A DNA stretch of 64,000 nucleotides from Escherichia phage KKE7M: sequence record PQ356295.1; one strand, written 5' to 3'. The translations under genes and the position numbers were made by a program. Positions within the stretch are counted from its first letter, which is position 1. Each line of letters opens with the position of its first letter. Below, in pieces: positions 22,943 through 44,729 of this stretch. The notes under the pieces are model-generated. The model did no database searches, was not told the origin of the DNA, and saw nothing but the letters and a program-made list of their open reading frames with translations.

Positions 22943-22963
22943 GATAATGATTATCATTTGCAT
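22943..22963. promoter_or_regulatory. Fur-box-like AT-rich palindrome
   Basis: GATAATGATTATCATTTGCAT. Confidence 0.3.
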
Positions 22964-23499: not shown

Positions 23500-23826
23500 T
23501 GTATGAAATGATTACGGTATGAAATGATTATTTAGGTAATAGATAGTAAGGTAAAGATTAGATCATAAATAGATAGGATATTAATTATTTAGTAATGTTA
23601 CTAACAATTTAATAGTTACTTTGTGCAACAATTCGATAGATTATAGTTATAGTTTTAAAGGTTAGATAGATTATATTTAGCTTGGTAATGATTTATATTA
23701 GTTATTGTTGTTTAATATAAGGTTATCAATGAGATAGTAACAGTAAGTTATAAATAAAGGTGAAATAATTAGCTTTAATTTAGTTAGATAACTTATTATT
23801 TTATAGGTTAGATGGTCATAAGTTAA
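23500..23826. repeat. AT-rich iteron-like short repeats
   Basis: Dense reiteration of TAGATAG / GGTTAGAT / GATTATA words in about 330 bp without ORFs. Confidence 0.35.
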
Positions 23827-23899
23827 GAATGATTATCATTATTGCATTATGCAGTTTATTGCATAAATAATCAGCTATAAATGAGAATGATTATTATTT
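23827..23899. promoter_or_regulatory. pair of Fur-box-like palindromes
   Basis: GAATGATTATCATTATTGCATTATGC and GAGAATGATTATTATTT. Confidence 0.3.
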
Positions 23900-34918: not shown

Positions 34919-34921
34919 TCT

Positions 34922-34950
34922 TGACAAGCCCAGGGATCGGGCTTATACTG
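34922..34950 (+). promoter_or_regulatory. sigma70-like promoter (TTGACA-17-TATACT) driving GC-rich non-coding transcript
   Basis: Consensus -35/-10 with no credible ORF downstream for more than 700 nt. Confidence 0.45.
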
Positions 34951-35180
34951 TTTTACATACAGAAGAGGAAGCGCCACCCCCACGGCGTAAAGGCGGGGCT
35001 AACATACCAGGGGGGCACTGGTTGGAAGGTTGATCGCCGGTAGCTCGTCTAAAATAAATTTGTAAAGAAATGTAAAGATAAAAATAATCGCTTGCTTTTG
35101 TTGTTGGTTATGCTATTCTTATTGTATGGCGAGGGGACACGGGAGCGCGAGACAAACACCACCCCTGCGCGTTATTCTCT

Positions 35181-35292
35181 AAATGAGAAAAATTCTCATT
35201 TGCTAACGATTCTCATTCTCTTACTGAGAATGATTATCACTTACATAATTAAATGATAATGATTCTCATTTACAAATGAGAATGATTATCAT
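35181..35292. promoter_or_regulatory. cluster of Fur-box-like palindromes
   Basis: AAATGAGAAAAATTCTCATTT, GAGAATGATTATCAC and AAATGATAATGATTCTCATTTACAAATGAGAATGATTATCAT. Confidence 0.35.
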
Positions 35293-35313
35293 ACGCACAC
35301 CTATAAAAACACG

Positions 35314-35520
35314 AAATTGAACTTTTCATTTTTGATTTTTCTACGGAAAAAGGCAAAAAAACTTTAAATAAACTGGGGAATTTTTAAAAAATTGAAGTTT
35401 TCATTTTCAAAATCTGGATAGAAATACATACAAAAACTTTAAATAATTTTGACCAAACTTGAACTTTTCATTTTCTAAATTTGTACCCAAAAATCTGTAA
35501 AAACTTTAAATAATTTTGTA
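35314..35520. repeat. three tandem direct repeats of about 67 bp
   Basis: Units start at about 35314, 35387 and 35455; each is AAAtTGAAcTTTTCATTTT ... AAAAACTTTAAATAA. Confidence 0.6.
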
Positions 35521-35732
35521 CTTTTTATAAAAATGATTTTACTGTTCTGTTATAAGTAGTAGTTAAGAGATAGTATGTCTTTTAAAGATCAGATACCATA
35601 GTCCAACAAACAAATTAAATACTTTATTAACAGGGTATAGAATACTACTTACTCTGGATATATTATTCAGAGGGTGAATTTCCGTACATGAAACCCACAC
35701 CCCTTTTTATAAAAATAAAAATTTTCAAAATA

Positions 35733-36284
35733 TCAGGAAATATCAGATTGTGCTTTTAGATAAACAGCAAGGTCTGTATGCCATTTTCCTAAAAGATTTT
35801 GTCCTTTCCAACAATCCTTATTTTCCACGTCACGATCCCACATCCCCATTTTGATACCATAAATAGAATCATAAGGGCTTGCCTCTACGAACTCCTTATC
35901 TGCGTAAGCGATAAGTTTATTTTTGAGATCTTCATTTTGTGTGTATTTAAGATACAAACCACGCTTGACAATCTTCTCCCGTAAAGAAGCCCAAGTATCT
36001 TCATCGTAATCTTTAACTAATCTACCTAGTCGCTTATAATATGCCTGTTCTTTTTCTCCTGTATATCTTAGATCTCCGGTTAAAATAGAAGATGCAATGT
36101 TGTAATCATAAAACAAACATGCTTTTCTCCACATCATATATTGTTCCACACAAGTAAATTCAACAGAACTTGTAATAGAATTATTATACTTGGGTGCTAA
36201 AGGTTCAATAAAAGATGATAGATACCAGTTGCTAAATTCATCTTTTGCTGAAAAGAAGAACACATACTTATCAGTAATCCGCAT
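35733..36284 (-). CDS. NADAR (YbiA-like, DUF1768) domain protein
   Basis: FFF...FSNWY.S.F ... EQYMMWRKA.LFYD pattern of the NADAR family; AAGGAG RBS. Confidence 0.7.
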   Translation of the reverse strand: MRITDKYVFFFSAKDEFSNWYLSSFIEPLAPKYNNSITSSVEFTCVEQYMMWRKACLFYDYNIASSILTGDLRYTGEKEQAYYKRLGRLVKDYDEDTWASLREKIVKRGLYLKYTQNEDLKNKLIAYADKEFVEASPYDSIYGIKMGMWDRDVENKDCWKGQNLLGKWHTDLAVYLKAQSDIS

Positions 36285-37274
36285 TTACATCTCCTTACTG
36301 TATACTAATTTGCCACCATATTGTGTAATAATTTTTTGAAGATTTTCCAAATCAGAAACACTTACTGTTTCTGTATAACCGTCTTTCAACTCTCTTTCCG
36401 TTAAAATACCAGTTTTTAATTTTTTCTTTATAGCTCTTTCAGCAGCCTTACATTGTTTTACTGTGCTAAAATCATATAAACAAATACGCTCCATAGGAAA
36501 CATATTACGGCTATTTTGAATTTTTAATCGTCTATCACTATCTTTAGCTATACCAAACTTAAGAGCAACTATAATATTATCATCCTTAACAATATTAATA
36601 TATAACTGCTGCTGACTATGACCAGCACACATAGGACAACCTCGACCGAGGCTTAATAAATTATGAGCACTCCCTATCTGCTCACCATGCACAAGACAAA
36701 AATATTTAAACTTACCTATAGAAGAGGGTTTGGTAATCCAATCTACCCAGACATACCCTTTCCCTTCTACTTCCTTTTTTACCCTATAGGTGATCTGGTC
36801 TTCTGTATACCGATAGTTCCCACAACGACACGGAATATACCCTCGTTTAAGGTTATCTCCTTCAGAGTAAAATTTACCATCACAAACACCTGCTTGAACA
36901 TATTCATCATGAGAGCAAACAGGACATTCAACCATCCAGATAATATTCCTACATCCTTTACCCCGTGTTCCTGTGTTAGTGAAGATAGTGCCTTCCTTAA
37001 ATTCCCCTGTAGAAAAGAAATCTGCAATATGTTGATCGTCGGACATTGTTTGTGACTTCCTTATATTCTTCCTCCTACATTGTGGACAACCGCTACCACA
37101 TTTAAAACTGTTAATACTTGTAGTATCCCATTTATAACCACAATGGCACAACAAATCAAGTTTTGTGTGGACCCCTTTCCATTGTCCCGTCCATCCTAAG
37201 ATTTGGATTTGCTTACTCTCTGCTATTGGTATACACTCTTCTTTATATTGTTCCCATGATTTTGGTGCTGCCAT
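36285..37274 (-). CDS. Cys-rich zinc-ribbon repeat protein with C-terminal T5orf172/GIY-YIG-like domain
   Basis: Four or more CxxC pairs (GSGCPQC, ECPVCSHDEY, IPCRCGNY, GRGCPMCAG) then KFGIAKDSDRRLKIQNS ... AERAIKKKL ... DGYTETV; AAGAGGAG RBS. Confidence 0.55.
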   Translation of the reverse strand: MAAPKSWEQYKEECIPIAESKQIQILGWTGQWKGVHTKLDLLCHCGYKWDTTSINSFKCGSGCPQCRRKNIRKSQTMSDDQHIADFFSTGEFKEGTIFTNTGTRGKGCRNIIWMVECPVCSHDEYVQAGVCDGKFYSEGDNLKRGYIPCRCGNYRYTEDQITYRVKKEVEGKGYVWVDWITKPSSIGKFKYFCLVHGEQIGSAHNLLSLGRGCPMCAGHSQQQLYINIVKDDNIIVALKFGIAKDSDRRLKIQNSRNMFPMERICLYDFSTVKQCKAAERAIKKKLKTGILTERELKDGYTETVSVSDLENLQKIITQYGGKLVYSKEM

Positions 37275-37313
37275 CTACTACTCCTCTTATTAAATCTGGC
37301 ATTAATGCAAGAA

Positions 37314-37337
37314 AACCCGCCGAAGCGGGTTTTTATT
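37314..37337 (-). terminator. rho-independent terminator (bidirectional-capable)
   Basis: ACCCGC-CGAA-GCGGGT hairpin with flanking T/A runs after AAA ATPase gene. Confidence 0.65.
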
Positions 37338-37348
37338 TGCTGGCTTAC

Positions 37349-38476
37349 TTAAAACACACTTGCCAAAGTTGCACCATTGGTGATAGTTGGTTCCAGAACA
37401 ATACGGAAAGAATCTTCTGGATCATCACTAAACACAACGATTTTACCGCCTGTGATAAGATCTGCTTTCATTTTTGTCGCATTCAATGGAATTCGAGCAT
37501 CGCCTTCATCATCAAAAACCACGTAAGAGCTATTAGCAAGGGCTTCTTTAGAGTCTGCATCACTTGGAGATGACAAGTACACGTCTAGTGTGCACGAACC
37601 ACCTAAAAAGATTGCAGGTGTAAAGTTATGCCAACTAGATACCCAGCTAACTTTCTGAAGTTTTCCATTAATAACAACGCTGCTGATATCCCATTTATTA
37701 CCACCACCTAAAGAAACGCCCATCATAGAGATGCATTCTTTAAAGGATAAATCAGGGTAGAAATTAAGTTCTTCTACTATACCTTGGATCACATCAAAGG
37801 ACAACTCTAAACTTACATCCCAAAGTCTTTGGAAATTATCAAAGTGTGCTTTGTTATCCAGGTTTTTATCTAAATAGTCAATCATAGTTTCTAGTGAGAT
37901 TTTATCATAATTAAAATTATAAAACACACGACTAGGACGATTTAAAAAGAATTCAGAGATAAAACCACTGTTTTTAGTCAGAATAAACAGTTTATTACCA
38001 CTGCCAGTACCATCTAACAAAGTGAGAAGTGCTTCTTGATCTTGTTTCTTCTCATATACTTTATCAAACTCGTCAAAAATAATCACTGCTTTGTCGGTGA
38101 TCTTGCTAATAAGTTCAATGAAATTAGCATCACTGTAGGCTTGAGTAACCATAATAGTTGGAATACCTTCTTCTACAAGATCACGACTAATGAGTTTGGC
38201 TAACATAGTTTTACCACTACCCTTAGTTCCTGTCAGAAGCAAGCCTGTATTTTTACCTTGTGCACTCCGGCGATGGAATGTACGGATAACGTGATTTGCT
38301 CGTTTTTCTGTTTCACCATACAGAACATCCGGTACACCTGTTAGATTACCACGGCTTAAAAAATAATTGCCAAGGGGATCACGACTAACAGTATAGAATC
38401 CAGGTGGAAGATAGTTAGATTCCACGCCCATATCTTTATTTACACTTACAATATCACCATAAATCGTGTATTTCAT
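37349..38476 (-). CDS. AAA-family ATPase (paralog 1)
   Basis: Walker A GTKGSGKT, Walker B IIFDEFDK, downstream LLTLLDG ... LFILTKN; about 45 percent identical to 52455..53615. Confidence 0.8.
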   Translation of the reverse strand: MKYTIYGDIVSVNKDMGVESNYLPPGFYTVSRDPLGNYFLSRGNLTGVPDVLYGETEKRANHVIRTFHRRSAQGKNTGLLLTGTKGSGKTMLAKLISRDLVEEGIPTIMVTQAYSDANFIELISKITDKAVIIFDEFDKVYEKKQDQEALLTLLDGTGSGNKLFILTKNSGFISEFFLNRPSRVFYNFNYDKISLETMIDYLDKNLDNKAHFDNFQRLWDVSLELSFDVIQGIVEELNFYPDLSFKECISMMGVSLGGGNKWDISSVVINGKLQKVSWVSSWHNFTPAIFLGGSCTLDVYLSSPSDADSKEALANSSYVVFDDEGDARIPLNATKMKADLITGGKIVVFSDDPEDSFRIVLEPTITNGATLASVF

Positions 38477-39996: not shown

Positions 39997-40052
39997 TACT
40001 TGATCTGAAATTAGTTTCTGGTACTCTGTGTGTATCGTAACAAAAGAGGTAG

Positions 40053-40346
40053 ATGATGAACATTACTTTAGCAACTAAGAATATTTCTGAAACAATTAAC
40101 GGTTTTGGTGTGATTGTAGCCTTGCACGGTAACAATGAGAAATGGTTGGCTTCTTTTGAAGAGGATCGTCAGCACAACATCATTTTAGATGCTCCTATAA
40201 AAGTTATGCATATTGTTGGTGAAAGCAAAGTGCTCACTTCCTCCCGTTCAAGGGAACAAATTACAAATGAATTAGTAAAACTGCTTGACAATGTTCTTAA
40301 CATGTTTGATGATGCTCCCATCAACACAAAACGTGTCTTAATGTGA
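40053..40346 (+). CDS. hypothetical protein (97 aa)
   Basis: AAAGAGGTAGATG RBS; first gene of forward block. Confidence 0.6.
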   Translation: MMNITLATKNISETINGFGVIVALHGNNEKWLASFEEDRQHNIILDAPIKVMHIVGESKVLTSSRSREQITNELVKLLDNVLNMFDDAPINTKRVLM

Positions 40347-40358
40347 GAGGAGAACCAA

Positions 40359-40646
40359 ATGTATTATTCACAAGACGAAGTAGCAAACATTAAACTGGCA
40401 GTGGGCGATCTTATTGTGTCACCTAACTACTATTGGGATAACACAGACTTGGTTGAAGTAGTAACCTATGTTGGAGTTGAAGGTATTGTGCTCTACACAC
40501 TAGGTGGAGGTGTTGTTGGGGAAATGGAACGTTATACGACAACGAAGAAACTGGTAAGCTCTTATCACATGTTTTTACACCAAGGTTCGGAAGAGTATAC
40601 AGATTTCTTGTTGAAATTAGATGCAGATCGGGAGAAGGCACGATGA
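40359..40646 (+). CDS. hypothetical protein (95 aa)
   Basis: GAGAGGAGAACC RBS. Confidence 0.6.
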   Translation: MYYSQDEVANIKLAVGDLIVSPNYYWDNTDLVEVVTYVGVEGIVLYTLGGGVVGEMERYTTTKKLVSSYHMFLHQGSEEYTDFLLKLDADREKAR

Positions 40647-40996
40647 AAATTGTACACGATGAAATTCAATTTGAAGAGAGTGATCTTCTTGATCTGGATG
40701 TGACACTAAGTAAACTGATCTACAATGCACTTTCTGCGTATCGTGCAAAAGTGATAGCCACAAACAATGTTAAAATTCCTAGTGGGTTACTTCGTCGGAT
40801 GTACCCACACGCTAAAGGTGACTATCTACCTTATATGGAAGAACGAGCAGCAGAACACTGGTTAGAAATTCTTGAAAAAATGGAGTCTTCTTTTAAGGAC
40901 TCAACTCCACCAGAAGAAGTTAATGAAAAACAACGGCAAGATCGTTTAGAAGGTCGTATTTTGTTTGCTAAGTATTTTCATAACCTGTGGATGTAA
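40643..40996 (+). CDS. hypothetical protein (117 aa)
   Basis: ATGA overlap; GGAGAAGG upstream. Confidence 0.6.
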   Translation: MKIVHDEIQFEESDLLDLDVTLSKLIYNALSAYRAKVIATNNVKIPSGLLRRMYPHAKGDYLPYMEERAAEHWLEILEKMESSFKDSTPPEEVNEKQRQDRLEGRILFAKYFHNLWM

Positions 40997-41008
40997 CAAG
41001 GAGTAAAG

Positions 41009-41164
41009 ATGGTTATCTACAAAAATAAGTTCACTGGCTGTCTGCGTAAATTTATTGACAAAAAAGGGTATGTTTCTGTTGACAATGGTGTTACGTGGGT
41101 GCAAAATGGCACTTCAGAACAACTGATCAGGGCTTTACCTTACTACGAGGAGTCTACAAAATGA
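41009..41164 (+). CDS. small protein, 51 aa
   Basis: ACAAGGAGTAAAG RBS; stop overlaps next ATG; not in ORF track. Confidence 0.5.
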   Translation: MVIYKNKFTGCLRKFIDKKGYVSVDNGVTWVQNGTSEQLIRALPYYEESTK

Positions 41165-41361
41165 CAGAATGGGTAAAAGTAGAAGATCCATACGATATCC
41201 CACTAGGTGAGTATGTGGTGGTAATGGAAGATGGTGGAAAAGGGTATTGTGAAGTGCATAAAAGTATGTCTGGTAAGATTATTGTGGTGAACCATCATTT
41301 TCACTTTGATTACCCTCCCATTGTGGCATATATGCCTTTACCTAAATATGAAGGGGATTAA
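41161..41361 (+). CDS. hypothetical protein (66 aa)
   Basis: CGAGGAG RBS before internal ATG of listed ORF. Confidence 0.55.
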   Translation: MTEWVKVEDPYDIPLGEYVVVMEDGGKGYCEVHKSMSGKIIVVNHHFHFDYPPIVAYMPLPKYEGD

Positions 41362-41508
41362 ATGTTATTCTTTAGACTTAATATTGCTTTTTGTTTGTTT
41401 GCAAATATTGCATTCTGGGTATTGGGTAGTGTAAAATTAGGCTACTTCTTTATTGTACTACAAGCTATTTGTTTAGCTGGTCAAATAATCACTAAGGGGC
41501 GAGTATGA
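41362..41508 (+). CDS. small membrane peptide, 48 aa
   Basis: AAGGGGATTAA then ATG; hydrophobic; stop overlaps next start; not in ORF track. Confidence 0.4.
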   Translation: MLFFRLNIAFCLFANIAFWVLGSVKLGYFFIVLQAICLAGQIITKGRV

Positions 41509-41933
41509 CACAACAAATCCAAGACAAGTTTAATGAACTCTATCCAGCAAGCGAAAGCGGCACTCATAACGTGCGTAAATCGCTCTATAACGTCTTTAAA
41601 GCAGGATGGGAGGCTTGCCTTCAGGCTCAAGAGGAACCAGCGTCAGGGACGCGTAACGGCTTTTATATCCCGATTGTTGAAAGTGAGGAAGGATGGGGTA
41701 GCAAACATGATGGTTATATGGTAGGATTCACCATAGAAGATCTTGAAGAACGCCGTAAAGTCTTTGAGGCAGCTAATACAGAAAAGTATGGCTACTATTA
41801 TGAACGACCTGTTCGTTACATTCCTGTTGTGCTTAGTCCTAAAGCTGTTGAAACAATGTCTGCAACAGAAAAAGAAAGGACTCGCCATTGTGTATGGTTT
41901 GATGATATTGACGATTTTCGATTTGGAGAATAA
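41505..41933 (+). CDS. hypothetical protein (142 aa)
   Basis: AAGGGGCGAGT RBS. Confidence 0.6.
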   Translation: MTQQIQDKFNELYPASESGTHNVRKSLYNVFKAGWEACLQAQEEPASGTRNGFYIPIVESEEGWGSKHDGYMVGFTIEDLEERRKVFEAANTEKYGYYYERPVRYIPVVLSPKAVETMSATEKERTRHCVWFDDIDDFRFGE

Positions 41934-41936
41934 ATT

Positions 41937-42209
41937 ATGAAAAATAAACACCCTTACTATAAATTATTGCATGTACTGCGCCGATTGCGCAATAAACAGA
42001 TTGAAGATTTCCGTCACTTCAAGCGTGATCGTGTGAATCGTCAATGGATGGATCATCGTTTCTTCTCTCTAACTATACGTAAGTTCCGTGAAGAGATTAA
42101 GAAGACAGACCAGGTAATTGCAGGTGCTAAACGTGCAATCTCTATGTCAAAGATCACAGGTGTAAATCATATGTACGACTTCAAAACAGACTCTGTTGTA
42201 CCTATGTAA
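41937..42209 (+). CDS. hypothetical basic protein (90 aa)
   Basis: GGAGAATAAATT upstream. Confidence 0.55.
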   Translation: MKNKHPYYKLLHVLRRLRNKQIEDFRHFKRDRVNRQWMDHRFFSLTIRKFREEIKKTDQVIAGAKRAISMSKITGVNHMYDFKTDSVVPM

Positions 42210-42237
42210 AAGTATTTTGTAAAGTTTTGTGGAGAGT

Positions 42238-42306
42238 ATTGACTTTTTCAGAAAAACATGCTACCCTAAACCTGAAAGGTGACGAGCGAAGCGAGTTAGT
42301 ATTCTC
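42238..42306 (+). repeat. copy B of the ~65-bp element (TTGACTTTTTCAGAAAAACATGCTACCCTAA ... GAGCGAAGCGAGTTAG)
   Basis: Matches copy A at 14411..14478; here begins with TTGACT and precedes a forward gene. Confidence 0.4.
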
Positions 42307-42373
42307 TATAGATATTGTTCCTGTCACTCATGGAGGGGCAGGAACAGAGTATATTACTGTATAGGAGAATACT

Positions 42374-42640
42374 ATGGATGTTACTACACTAAGGTTTATA
42401 CTTCTCTTCTTACTTATAGTTATAGGATTAATTGTTATACCCTATCTATATGTCTACATGTTATCTTGTAAGTATGGTTATGATCGTATACCATTTTACT
42501 ATTTAATACCTGTCTTAATTATCTATCTATTTCTCTTTTGTAGATATTGCCCTGAATTAGTCCCTGAACACTGGAAGTTAGAACCTGTTGAAGTTTACTA
42601 TTGTGAATGGAAGACAGAATACAGATCTAACAGTAATTAG
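42374..42640 (+). CDS. membrane protein (88 aa)
   Basis: ATAGGAGAATACT RBS; two hydrophobic helices. Confidence 0.55.
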   Translation: MDVTTLRFILLFLLIVIGLIVIPYLYVYMLSCKYGYDRIPFYYLIPVLIIYLFLFCRYCPELVPEHWKLEPVEVYYCEWKTEYRSNSN

Positions 42641-42700
42641 TTATTGACTCTATCTACTAAATAATCTAGACTCTATGTAAAATTTACTAAGGAGACTACT

Positions 42701-42865
42701 ATGCAAAACATTTCTATCACTAAAACAAAAAGATCTGTACCTAAACTTACTCACTCTACATATCCTGTTATCATCCGTAAAGGAAAAGAATGGATTAAAG
42801 ATGATCATGGTGGTTATGTAGAAGTGTCAAAGCTGAAAGAAGCAGAAGTTAACTTTGTACGCTAA
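42701..42865 (+). CDS. small protein, 54 aa
   Basis: CTAAGGAGACTACT RBS; not in ORF track. Confidence 0.5.
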   Translation: MQNISITKTKRSVPKLTHSTYPVIIRKGKEWIKDDHGGYVEVSKLKEAEVNFVR

Positions 42866-42875
42866 GGAGTAGACT

Positions 42876-43157
42876 ATGACTGAAGAATTTAAGCAATGGT
42901 TTGATAAAACCTTCCCACCACATATGTGGCCTAACGAAGAAGAACGTCAAGAAGTGATGATCTACACTTGGCTTGCCTGGCGGGATGGTATCCGTAGCAA
43001 AGAAGCACAGGAAGAGGAACCTATTGCCTACATCTTTAAACATCCAGCAGGTAAGTTGTTTTGGGCTTTAACAGATGAAAGTAATAAAGATCAACACGAT
43101 GTTATTCCTGTGTATACCAAGAGCAATGTAAAGGATCAATCAGATGACAAGGTATAG
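42876..43157 (+). CDS. hypothetical protein (93 aa)
   Basis: GCTAAGGAGTAGACT RBS. Confidence 0.6.
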   Translation: MTEEFKQWFDKTFPPHMWPNEEERQEVMIYTWLAWRDGIRSKEAQEEEPIAYIFKHPAGKLFWALTDESNKDQHDVIPVYTKSNVKDQSDDKV

Positions 43158-43626
43158 CATATGGGGTAGAATGGGCGAAGACCATGATTACTATTGCTTG
43201 AAAAGTAATGTTGAACAGGCAGATGTTGATAAAATTATAAAGCACTACCTAAAAACATGGCGTGAAGTGGAGTTTAGAGAGTTCGCTATCCTCCATAGTC
43301 AAGAAGGAGAAAAGGAGATAGACATGAGTACACTAACTAAAGCAGTACAAACGCATAAGGAGTATGAGGAAGCAGTTAAAGATGAAGTGAACCCTACTTC
43401 ACTGACGTTCGAAAACCTCACCCCTTTGTTTTGGTCATATGATGGTAATGAAATTTTTACACATGATACACCAGAGGCTGTTAAAAATTGGGAAGGCTGT
43501 TGTAATTCCTATGAGGTGTTATATGTTGTAGAAGAAGATGATACGTACATTATGTTCCGCATAGATAACGGTTGTGGTGATCAGTGGGATATTGTTCTTT
43601 CTAAACATTTGCAATTGGGTGGTTAA
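43144..43626 (+). CDS. hypothetical protein (160 aa)
   Basis: ORF overlapping upstream gene end. Confidence 0.6.
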   Translation: MTRYSIWGRMGEDHDYYCLKSNVEQADVDKIIKHYLKTWREVEFREFAILHSQEGEKEIDMSTLTKAVQTHKEYEEAVKDEVNPTSLTFENLTPLFWSYDGNEIFTHDTPEAVKNWEGCCNSYEVLYVVEEDDTYIMFRIDNGCGDQWDIVLSKHLQLGG

Positions 43627-43627
43627 A

Positions 43628-43990
43628 ATGCTAAAGTACCTGATGATCACTTGGTTATGTTTACTTTCATTTGCGGGGCATGCAACAGAAGGTTTTAAAC
43701 TTGGTGCTGACGGTACTAAATTCTTTACATATTGGGGTGGGAAAGCCTTATACCAAGAAGAAAAGAATAGCATAGAATGTACGGTTAGTAAGAAGATTAA
43801 ATCAGTAGATCAATATGGGGATGCCTATACTGGTGTAGGTTTTAACTGTGGAAAAGATTTATTTCTATTTGTTAAGAAGTATTTAGATGTTAACCTTGTA
43901 TTGCTTATTGTTATAGATCCTGCTAAGTTTGAAGAGCGTAAAGCATATCGTGCAGATATGTTCCTAGAATATGATGATAAGGAGAAATAA
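43628..43990 (+). CDS. putative secreted protein with signal peptide (about 120 aa)
   Basis: Start trimmed to MLKYLMITWLCLLSFAGHA signal-peptide-like N-terminus. Confidence 0.55.
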   Translation: MLKYLMITWLCLLSFAGHATEGFKLGADGTKFFTYWGGKALYQEEKNSIECTVSKKIKSVDQYGDAYTGVGFNCGKDLFLFVKKYLDVNLVLLIVIDPAKFEERKAYRADMFLEYDDKEK

Positions 43991-44341
43991 ATGCTTGATG
44001 TAACTATTAATGGTGTTAAATATATTCCTTATGTAGAGAAAAGCAATCCTGATGCCCTGGATGTTATGTTTGAGGATTCAGACCTTGGTACTGTCACTGT
44101 ACGGGAATATTTCCGACAACTACTCTCTACGTTATGGAGAGAAGAAGAGTGTTTTAATGGTAAACGTCCATTTGGTAATTCATGCTGGCAATTTGATATG
44201 ATCCGTGCCTTAATTGAGGCAGGGTATATTGAAGGTACAGTTGTGTACGATGAAGATGGATATCCAGAAGAAACTGATTACGACAGTAAAGAAGCTAATA
44301 AATTTATACAGGGCTTGATTGCACAGATGTGTTTGGGTTAA
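43991..44341 (+). CDS. hypothetical protein (116 aa)
   Basis: AAGGAGAAATAA RBS. Confidence 0.6.
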   Translation: MLDVTINGVKYIPYVEKSNPDALDVMFEDSDLGTVTVREYFRQLLSTLWREEECFNGKRPFGNSCWQFDMIRALIEAGYIEGTVVYDEDGYPEETDYDSKEANKFIQGLIAQMCLG

Positions 44342-44342
44342 T

Positions 44343-44729
44343 ATGAAAGTATTAAATTTCTACCATTTAGGTAAAGTAATACCTGAAGGTGCAGTGTACA
44401 TTGGCAGAGCTATGCCTCATATGGGGTTAAAAGCCTCAAAGTTTGCAAATCCTTTTAAGTTAAAGGATGATGAGCCACGAGGATCAACTATACAAAGATA
44501 TAAAGAGTGGTTGTGGGAGCAAATTCGTTGTGGTAAAATCACTCTTGAAGATTTGTTAGAATTAGAAGGGAAAGACTTAGTTTGCTTCTGCTCACCTCAA
44601 CCTTGTCATGGTGATGTGTTGGTAGCAGCGGTTGCTTGGGCTAGAACAGAGTGGGATAAAAGGCATCCTACTTACACAGATGATTATTGGATTTGGGAGG
44701 ATATTTATGAAGACTACACAAGAAATTAA
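44343..44729 (+). CDS. DUF4326-like protein
   Basis: GRAMPHMGLKASKFANPF ... YKEWLWEQI ... LVCFCSPQPCHGDVL pattern. Confidence 0.5.
   Translation: MKVLNFYHLGKVIPEGAVYIGRAMPHMGLKASKFANPFKLKDDEPRGSTIQRYKEWLWEQIRCGKITLEDLLELEGKDLVCFCSPQPCHGDVLVAAVAWARTEWDKRHPTYTDDYWIWEDIYEDYTRN

Follow-up and report, generated by a model that had tools for sequence, protein, structure and literature searches.

Two genes that abut on the minus strand of a 64-kb stretch of Escherichia phage DNA (hereafter the window) are most likely two independent kinds of gene, each already described. The protein encoded upstream belongs to a known class of T5orf172 homing endonucleases, in which CapR zinc fingers are repeated, and the role of the downstream NADAR protein in reversing ADP-ribosylation is already known from a published ortholog. 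The pair is probably best understood as co-expressed neighbours in one leftward gene string that act independently, one an endonuclease of homing descent and the other a NADAR of the AdfN type. The main outcome is a tidying of annotation: a phi92-like gene that carries varied labels is the validated anti-DarTG1 factor AdfN, and its upstream neighbour is a CapR/T5orf172 endonuclease of homing type rather than a cofactor. The domain identities, orthology, conservation patterns and distribution of genomic contexts given below come from direct analysis, and the coordinates of the features are collected in Table 1.

Table 1. Features of the nuclease-NADAR locus, with positions in the window and strand.
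Feature	Position (strand)	Details and basis
CapR-repeat/T5orf172 endonuclease gene, 329 aa; phi92 gp222, bas60_0110, bas61_0106	36285..37274 (-)	ORF, Pfam, PHROG 681
Three zinc-binding modules, hypervariable part (residues 1-218)	36621..37274 (-)	C43xC45...C63xxC66; C117xxC120...C149xC151; C193xxH196...C213xxC216
T5orf172/GIY-YIG-like domain (residues 219-329 and stop codon)	36285..36620 (-)	LYI...KFGIA...RR...GYTE
NADAR gene, 183 aa; AdfN^Bas60 ortholog	35733..36284 (-)	Pfam, identity, aligned glutamates, dN/dS
Gene junction AAGGAGATGTAAATG	36282..36296 (-)	NADAR Shine-Dalgarno within the final codons of the nuclease ORF; TAA abuts ATG
Hairpin AAAACCCGC-UUCG-GCGGGUUUU, between ATPase stop and nuclease start	37312..37334 (.)	T-runs on both strands
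AAA-type ATPase gene, 375 aa; phi92 gp221; upstream neighbour, context only, outside the pair	37349..38476 (-)	Pfam AAA, E 1.5e-9; PHROG 2376, E 7e-108

The source phage is a Justusliebigvirus (phi92-like) phage of E. coli, 99.7% identical to phage 92CQ and 97-98% identical to phi92, VEcB and the BASEL phages. A preliminary description of the locus had the stop of one gene abutting the start of the other, and this arrangement was confirmed, with both open reading frames on the minus strand: the TAA of the nuclease gene (36287-36285) directly adjoins the NADAR ATG (36284-36282) as TAAATG. The operon-like character of the pairing was likewise borne out, as the NADAR Shine-Dalgarno sequence, AGGAG at 36295-36291, lies inside the nuclease gene. 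The junction was kept in all seven Justusliebigvirus phages compared, the codon before the stop showing a single A/G difference, and the phi92 record annotates a ribosome-binding site at the same position. Because the 3′ end of the nuclease gene supplies the ribosome-binding site of the NADAR gene, the link between the two is transcriptional and translational as opposed to biochemical, and given the conserved Shine-Dalgarno/TAAATG junction, translation of the NADAR may depend on the upstream gene. The hairpin that precedes the nuclease gene has a 9-bp stem in its minimum-energy fold, is kept in seven phages and is annotated as a terminator in phages Paula and PATM. It was not flagged by a simple terminator scan, and it looks like a bidirectional intrinsic terminator, in which case the pair would be either read through or separately promoted. 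A sigma-70 promoter scan returned 24 sites against 19.9 expected, which is no enrichment, and no convincing promoter for the pair. The ATPase gene beyond the hairpin is syntenic in Justusliebigvirus, Phapecoctavirus and the Pseudomonas phage relatives.

The NADAR domain call of the preliminary description was firmly supported by Pfam (PF08719, E 2.5e-36). The protein shares 98.4% amino acid identity with its counterpart in PaulScherrer (Bas60) and 99.5% with that in EmilieFrey (Bas61), and the gene occupies the same genomic position in both. In alignment with the P. nicotianae NADAR 8BAU, whose chain carries a numbering offset of 2 residues, its E47 and E134 fall on the catalytic E43 and E125, and dN/dS values of 0.02-0.10 indicate strong purifying selection. 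In PADLOC, the NADAR also matches PDC-M42C, a model of a candidate system, which its domain would lead one to expect. AdfN^Bas60 is the NADAR of the phi92-like BASEL phages Bas60-62 (Johannesman et al. 2025, PMC11825919), and presumably corresponds to bas60_0111, since this is the sole NADAR match in the Bas60 genome. It is specific for guanosine-linked ADP-ribose, and when expressed alone it neutralises DarT1 and restores plaquing on DarTG1 hosts, rescuing three unrelated phages (PMC11825919). By sequence identity and position, the NADAR of the window is orthologous to AdfN^Bas60, so that one gene is seen in two isolates, and by analogy with this 98-99% identical protein it would remove guanine-linked ADP-ribose and counter DarT1. 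In phi92-like phages, adfN often carries labels such as 'hypothetical', 'GTP cyclohydrolase II' or 'YbiA-like N-glycosidase'. A Pfam search matched no ADP-ribosyltransferase family next to the NADAR; where DarTG1 has a DarT1 toxin beside its NADAR, the gene upstream here encodes the CapR/T5orf172 protein, followed by the AAA ATPase.

The earlier proposal that the locus reverses ADP-ribosylation of bases installed by a toxin therefore stands for the NADAR, for which it had already been published in the form of AdfN^Bas60, and finds no support for the nuclease as its partner. In a partnership of this kind, the DNA-binding protein would bring the NADAR to ADP-ribosylated DNA, direct it there or stimulate it, or else excise modified bases that are beyond the reach of the NADAR. 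Strict adjacency in 55/55 Justusliebigvirus genomes, the conserved overlap of Shine-Dalgarno sequence and TAAATG, and synteny within about 0.6 kb in Phapecoctavirus and Pseudomonas phage relatives speak for such a two-component machine, and partners for NADARs do exist in principle, as T4 AdfN needs an unidentified phage factor (PMC11825919). However, AdfN^Bas60 acts by itself, and the authors state that no additional phage factor is required (PMC11825919); their text uses neither 'endonuclease' nor 'homing' and does not discuss the upstream endonuclease gene. The genomic distribution of the two families also argues against a machine of this kind. NADAR was found in 716 phage records, whereas the nuclease family as a whole accounts for 417, including 148 from Vibrio phages, so that most phage NADARs, with adjacency checked in a sample, occur without this nuclease. 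The nuclease family in turn occurs mostly without NADAR, as in ICP1, T5 and Aeromonas phages, and its closer homologs, at 41-47% identity, are non-syntenic and sit in unrelated neighbourhoods that lack NADAR, while the syntenic Pseudomonas-type relatives of the nuclease are 39-46% identical. In the sister genus Phapecoctavirus, two small ORFs intervene between nuclease and NADAR, and the Pseudomonas phage relatives keep this order of ATPase, nuclease, two small ORFs and NADAR. HNH endonucleases follow the NADAR instead in Seunavirus and in a Klebsiella phage related to it. Finally, the NADAR is 96-100% conserved while the DNA-binding repeats of the nuclease vary in number and sequence and evolve far faster, unlike co-adapted partners. 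Taken with the self-sufficiency of AdfN^Bas60, these patterns make a two-component machine very improbable, and the nuclease appears to be functionally unrelated to the NADAR. A suspected second nuclease-NADAR pair in Pectobacterium phage DU_PP_IV, in which a 176-aa gene abuts the nuclease stop, was discarded because this gene had no NADAR or other Pfam match and no tblastn match to NADAR.

The 329-aa protein had been described as having zinc-ribbon-like repeats with at least four CxxC pairs. Zinc modules are indeed present, but the count needs a small correction: the protein contains three CxxC pairs (C63/C66, C117/C120 and C213/C216), two CxC pairs (C43/C45 and C149/C151) and one CxxH (C193/H196), which together make three four-ligand zinc modules. 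Pfam assigns these modules to the CapR homology domain (PF21817, E 6e-25), with two stretches recognised at E 0.01 and up to three at a looser threshold. The CapR zinc ligand set has been defined as CxxC...(24-26 residues)...CxC, and DNA binding via this zinc finger has been demonstrated (PMC8096241). Module 2 follows the same order with 28 residues between its ligand pairs, and modules 1 and 3 are CxC/CxxH...CxxC variants. In an alignment of 35 homologs, the zinc-ligand columns are invariant or nearly so. These homologs were gathered with the full-length protein as query, as the C-terminal 111 residues alone retrieved only one protein.

The C-terminal segment had been likened to the T5orf172/GIY-YIG-like fold, and the profile search that had been called for agreed with this, if marginally: the match to Pfam PF10544 (T5orf172) only just passed the cut-off of 20 bits, with a score of 20.6 (E 6.6e-4). 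The same family was matched by 21 of the 35 homologs (best E 3.5e-6) and MUG113 by 6/35, PHROG 681 'endonuclease' matched the 329-aa protein with E 1e-67, and orthologs in related phages carry the annotation 'endonuclease'. Both motifs quoted in the preliminary description were located, at residue 239 (KFGIAKDSDRRLKIQNS) and at residue 298 (DGYTETV), and structure prediction gave a confident GIY-YIG-like alpha/beta fold with matches to GIY-YIG folds. Y225, R249, E279 and E302 are invariant in the 35 homologs, down to 33% identity. Positions of the Y225/R249/E302 type are candidates for the catalytic Tyr, Arg and Glu, with the order of motifs suggesting equivalence to Y6/R27/E75 of I-TevI. A profile built from the 35-sequence alignment had no meaningful match among PDB sequences (ribosomal L31 zinc ribbon, E 0.08), and this search found no solved structure for the CapR/T5orf172 nuclease family; PADLOC returned no defence-system match for the nuclease. 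The product of this gene is predicted to cleave DNA. The same endonuclease lineage gave rise to CapR, which binds DNA as a repressor (PMC8096241), and members of this clade score only marginally for Pfam T5orf172, so the protein could instead have stopped cutting and, like CapR, repress or otherwise regulate transcription of nearby genes, perhaps the NADAR among them. Loss of nuclease features would be expected in a pure repressor, yet the C-terminal domain is kept in all homologs at 95% mean nucleotide identity, its candidate catalytic residues are invariant and its fold is confidently predicted, which renders a regulatory role quite improbable.

The nuclease is present at this site in 55/55 Justusliebigvirus records, and a flank-joined query run in both distant and near modes found no empty site in these 55 records, such as an active free-standing homing endonuclease gene would be expected to leave as its target allele. 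The alleles differ extensively all the same. Versions with 3, 4 or 5 CapR repeats and 325-467 aa occur in otherwise 97-99% identical genomes, and the ORFs are intact. The DNA-binding part has a mean pairwise nucleotide identity of 80% (minimum 66%) as compared to 97-99% for the flanking genes, and its dS reaches 0.5-1.2 as compared to 0.05-0.14 in the flanks, or 4-10 times the flanks in several pairs, pointing to allele exchange. Elevated dS together with the non-syntenic homologs is the signature of horizontal movement sought for homing genes. Between the two closest alleles, the DNA-binding part carries 20 non-synonymous but only 1 synonymous codon change (omega about 6); a test for positive selection on this pair gave a binomial p = 0.06, so that positive selection, not significant on its own, is suggestive only. 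Fixation at one site, with synteny in the sister genus, would not be typical of a homing gene that is purely selfish, and a role that benefits the lineage is conceivable.

One such role would be that of a domesticated, lineage-fixed weapon, an Odn-like or exclusion nuclease that, in place of active homing, directs a quickly evolving array of zinc fingers against satellites or competing phages in the same cell and merely shares a transcript with the NADAR. The lack of empty sites, the intact reading frames, the catalytic residues conserved across 35 homologs and the excess of non-synonymous changes between the closest alleles all agree with this idea, and inny, muut and Mt1B1_P17, members of the same phage group, encode Odn-like nucleases of the T5orf172/RepA_N kind that have been matched to satellites of E. 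coli (PMC10448857). However, the selection signal falls short of significance, and fixation could also come about if homing alleles kept displacing each other. No satellite counterpart or target was identified either: when satellite or chromosomal counterparts of the DNA-binding region were sought, 5,426 complete E. coli genomes gave no nucleotide match, and GTDB species genomes yielded two distant loci and no more. Domestication as a weapon is accordingly possible but rather unlikely. It is also improbable, though conceivable, that the two genes form a selfish cassette of drive and cargo, in which the nuclease, fixed in the lineage and quick to change the specificity of its zinc fingers, would cut the corresponding locus in relatives or satellites that infect the same cell, and repair would co-convert the anti-DarT gene, which lies close by and is coupled in translation, so that the counter-defence would spread from phage to phage. 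Such a cassette, if it existed, would account for the recurrent flanking of phage NADARs by endonucleases of unrelated families, T5orf172 here and HNH in Seunavirus and Klebsiella phages.

Under the favoured reading, that of independent neighbours, the three CapR-type zinc-finger modules of the first gene product would read a DNA site as beads on a string and its C-terminal T5orf172 domain, of the GIY-YIG superfamily, would cut DNA, with the repeats that determine specificity being quickly gained, lost, exchanged or replaced. The second gene product, an orphan-antitoxin-like NADAR of the AdfN type, would hydrolyse ADP-ribose from guanines modified on phage DNA by host DarT1, and phage replication would thereby be restored. 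The nuclease itself is of modest interest, combining a site fixed throughout the genus and retained catalytic motifs with whole-module and amino acid differences between genomes that are 97-99% identical. Its alleles offer a convenient natural series for studying how specificity changes in beads-on-a-string nucleases, and the locus is well suited to asking whether homing genes that have become fixed persist because their alleles are replaced or because they are domesticated. Were the nuclease to drive co-conversion of adfN, which is hypothetical here, selfish nucleases would be linked to the spread of an anti-defence gene.

Comparison with known systems places each gene separately. A class of T5orf172 homing endonucleases whose zinc fingers (CapR/DUF723/DUF4379) occur as repeats subject to in-frame indels has been described (Barth, Dunham & Seed 2023, PMC10448857), and the nuclease of the window resembles its ICP1 members gp165 and gp174 in having an N-terminal CapR-type zinc array and a C-terminal T5orf172 domain, in gaining and losing whole repeats in frame between close relatives and in being a free-standing gene of a large lytic phage; its identity to ICP1 'putative homing endonuclease' genes is 32% (tblastn). 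Unlike the ICP1 genes, it is not sporadic but fixed at one intergenic site in all sequenced Justusliebigvirus members, with synteny that extends to the sister genus, and it lies beside an accessory counter-defence gene in place of an essential one. It is also present in a single copy in the window, a search of which found no second copy and no Odn-like T5orf172 gene, and its cleavage activity is predicted. With ICP1 Odn and the Odn-like nucleases of coliphages (PMC8263062; PMC10448857), it shares a T5orf172 domain joined to an exchangeable DNA-binding module, but this module consists of CapR zinc fingers and not RepA_N, and no satellite sequence matching it was found in the E. coli genomes searched. 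As compared to I-TevI, the domain order is reversed, with the nuclease domain C-terminal, and the second motif is KFGIA where I-TevI and the Slx1/HIGLE GIY-YIG nucleases have YIG, with no significant match to solved structures. The pair as a whole recalls the DarT1-NADAR (DarTG1) operon, in which a NADAR that reverses guanine ADP-ribosylation is likewise the second gene of a tight pair. Here, however, the upstream partner is a CapR and T5orf172 protein in place of an ADP-ribosyltransferase, the NADAR has a YbiA-type glutamate as opposed to the DarG1-type aspartate, and the pair is phage-borne and serves counter-defence rather than defence. From AdfN^Bas60, by contrast, the NADAR of the window differs in nothing substantive: both are stand-alone NADARs with both catalytic glutamates, encoded at the same position and sharing 98.4-99.5% amino acid identity across the BASEL phages compared.

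Two minus-strand ORFs together fill exactly the interval reported in the preliminary description, and its observation that the stop of one abuts the start of the other was confirmed. The junction AAGGAG[A/G]TGTAAATG is common to seven related phages. A conserved hairpin, which looks like a bidirectional terminator, sets the pair apart from the upstream AAA ATPase gene. This hairpin was not picked up by a simple terminator scan, and a sigma-70 promoter scan yielded no convincing promoter. Escherichia phage 92CQ matches the region at 99.7% identity; phi92, VEcB, alia, muut, PHB05 and the BASEL phages PaulScherrer, EmilieFrey and JohannJBalmer match it at 96-98.5%. All of these phages belong to Justusliebigvirus (Stephanstirmvirinae). 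The phi92 counterparts are gp222 (nuclease) and gp223 (NADAR), downstream of the AAA ATPase gp221. Four records labeled as 'Campylobacter phage' with C. jejuni as host (MG065639, MG065645, MG065656 and MG065689) match the locus at 97% identity and include both genes of the pair; mislabeling of the host or contamination is the probable cause.

Coordinates of the gene pair, its junction and the non-coding features
Feature	Position	Strand	Remark
CapR/T5orf172 nuclease-like gene, 329 aa	36285..37274	minus	ORF
NADAR gene, 183 aa	35733..36284	minus	ORF
Nuclease-gene stop TAA	36287-36285	minus	directly touches NADAR ATG
NADAR start ATG	36284-36282	minus	sequence
NADAR AGGAG	36295-36291	minus	inside final codons of nuclease gene
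GC-rich hairpin, 9-bp stem, UUCG loop, T-runs on both strands	37312-37334		between ATPase and nuclease genes; conserved
Non-coding stretch, ~800 bp	34919-35732		between convergent 88-aa ORF and NADAR gene
Three ~70-nt direct repeats TTGAACTTTTCATTTT...AAAAACTTTAAATAA	35314-35534		within non-coding stretch 34919-35732
Fur-box-like palindromes TGATAATGATTCTCATTT, AAATGAGAATGATTATCAT	35180-35292; 22943-22961; 23825-23843		consensus match

The NADAR assignment of the downstream protein is secure in Pfam (PF08719, E 2.5e-36), and its dN/dS of 0.02-0.10 indicates strong purifying selection. Bas60, Bas61 and Bas62, phi92-like phages of the BASEL collection, encode a NADAR named AdfN^Bas60 (Johannesman et al., PMC11825919). 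Expressed alone in E. coli, this anti-DarT factor neutralized the guanosine-targeting toxin DarT1 and let three unrelated DarTG1-sensitive phages regain plaquing; it was ineffective against the thymidine-modifying DarT2 (PMC11825919). Bas61 is EmilieFrey and the bas60_ locus tags are those of PaulScherrer. The window protein shares 99.5% identity with the EmilieFrey protein and 98.4% with the PaulScherrer protein at the same genomic position, and each of these genomes has this single NADAR match. By sequence, the window NADAR would effectively be the published AdfN^Bas60. Given the activity of that ortholog, the earlier proposal that ADP-ribosylated bases placed by a defense toxin are reversed appears correct for the NADAR, for which it has already been published. 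GenBank labels for this NADAR are inconsistent ('GTP cyclohydrolase II', 'YbiA-like N-glycosidase', 'NADAR family protein' and 'hypothetical protein').

The upstream protein contains 17 cysteines. The zinc-ribbon-like modules described for it are present, but as three ligand sets (C43xC45...C63xxC66, C117xxC120...C149xC151 and C193xxH196...C213xxC216) and not as four CxxC pairs. A CapR homology domain covers the N-terminal 220 residues in up to three stretches (Pfam, E 6e-25), and PHROG 681 'endonuclease' spans residues 27-328 (E 1e-67). T5orf172, at residues 231-288, barely exceeds the Pfam cut-off of 20 bits (20.6 bits), and this assignment was therefore tested further. The profile was matched by 21 of 35 homologs with identities down to 33% (best E 3.5e-6), MUG113 was matched by six, and Y225, K239, G241, I242, R249, E279, D298, G299, E302 and T303 are invariant across all 35, which together support the T5orf172 identification; the motifs quoted in the preliminary description lie at residues 239 and 298. 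Foldseek gave no significant E-values for this protein, and no solved structure matched it by sequence. Its identity is 32% to genes annotated in ICP1 as 'putative homing endonuclease' and 28% to one T5 gene. In the T5orf172 homing endonucleases described by Barth, Dunham and Seed, 87% have a DNA-binding region built from one or more CapR, DUF723 or DUF4379 zinc fingers arranged as beads on a string, with in-frame repeat deletions and domain swapping (PMC10448857). In CapR itself, the CxxC...CxC cysteines are needed for DNA binding (Netter et al., PMC8096241). The upstream protein is unlikely to act purely as a CapR-like repressor, because the nuclease motifs are conserved across the 35 homologs.

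A classical homing gene is expected to show presence/absence polymorphism. None was found at the nuclease locus: a query joining the NADAR-side and ATPase-side flanks revealed an insert in 55/55 Justusliebigvirus records and no empty site among them. The inserts measure 978-993, 1173-1212 or about 1400 nt; the respective proteins have three CapR stretches at 325-330 aa, four at 390-403 aa and five at 465-467 aa. Pairwise nucleotide identity among seven genomes averages 97.2%, 98.3% and 98.1% in the NADAR gene, the ATPase gene and the gene after it, respectively; within the nuclease gene it averages 95.2% over the nuclease-domain part and 80.3% (minimum 66%) over the DNA-binding part. Synonymous divergence in the DNA-binding part reaches 0.5-1.2, as compared to 0.05-0.14 in the flanks, which indicates that its variability is due largely to allele exchange and not to relaxed constraint alone. 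Between the window and EmilieFrey, the closest alleles, this part differs by 20 non-synonymous codons and one synonymous codon (omega about 6), a suggestive excess that is not significant (p = 0.06). Either one nuclease allele is continually replaced by another, or the nuclease has been domesticated in this lineage. Domestication is plausible, as the same phage group has nucleases of the Odn-like T5orf172/RepA_N type, which have been matched to E. coli satellites, although a search of complete E. coli genomes found no nucleotide counterpart of the nuclease gene and only two distant bacterial relatives of it were found. Mt1B1_P17 carries a second T5orf172-related gene, gp053 (comparison locus L002, 9364-10350), ~5 kb from its CapR nuclease (tblastn E 2.5e-6); this gene probably encodes the Odn-like RepA_N nuclease that Barth et al. 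described (PMC10448857). Window positions 40000-44500 contain small ORFs only and no counterpart of gp053.

A functional partnership between the two proteins, as initially proposed, is not supported. In favor of a link are the strict adjacency throughout Justusliebigvirus, the conserved junction, and the order ATPase-nuclease-two small ORFs-NADAR kept in Phapecoctavirus, Pseudomonas phage PsgM04F and metagenomic relatives. Against it, AdfN^Bas60 works alone (PMC11825919), and closer nuclease homologs (41-47% identity) lie in unrelated neighborhoods with no NADAR within 4 kb, as compared to 39-46% identity for the distant relatives that keep the gene order. The whole nuclease family occurs in 417 phage records (148 of them Vibrio phages), often in several copies per genome, as compared to 716 records with NADARs, and Seunavirus and a related Klebsiella phage have HNH endonuclease genes beside the NADAR gene instead. 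Partner-like conservation is also absent, the NADAR being nearly invariant while the nuclease swaps whole modules. We conclude that co-expression is probably the only link. In Salmonella phage GEC_vB_MG (L006, 4001-4959) and Klebsiella phage K54_rec1 (L007, 3998-5424), one or two HNH endonuclease genes come immediately after the NADAR gene, with an exonuclease next in order; with a T5orf172 neighbor here, phage NADAR genes therefore adjoin endonucleases of unrelated families.

The stretch beyond the NADAR gene also contains nested inverted repeats, is labeled 'repeat_region' in phages alia, muut and inny, and might hold iterons or an origin, or else carry promoters or a small RNA. The consensus of E. 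coli Fur, GATAATGATAATCATTATC, has four matches at ≤3 mismatches in the window (0.04 expected by chance), all within long non-coding stretches, with a TATACT hexamer just downstream of the site at 22943. Such sites could be iron-regulated phage promoters or serve in Fur titration.

Of the original interpretation, the domains and the NADAR function stand and the partnership does not. Both components are of known kinds. The upstream gene is a putative nuclease, an uncharacterized member of the described CapR/T5orf172 class. The closest solved relative of the NADAR is that of Phytophthora nicotianae (8BAU, E 2.7e-13), with whose catalytic E43 and E125 its E47 and E134 align. The window NADAR therefore belongs to the glutamate (YbiA-like) type, unlike DarG1, which is of the aspartate type, and T4 gp30.3, which is of the histidine type.
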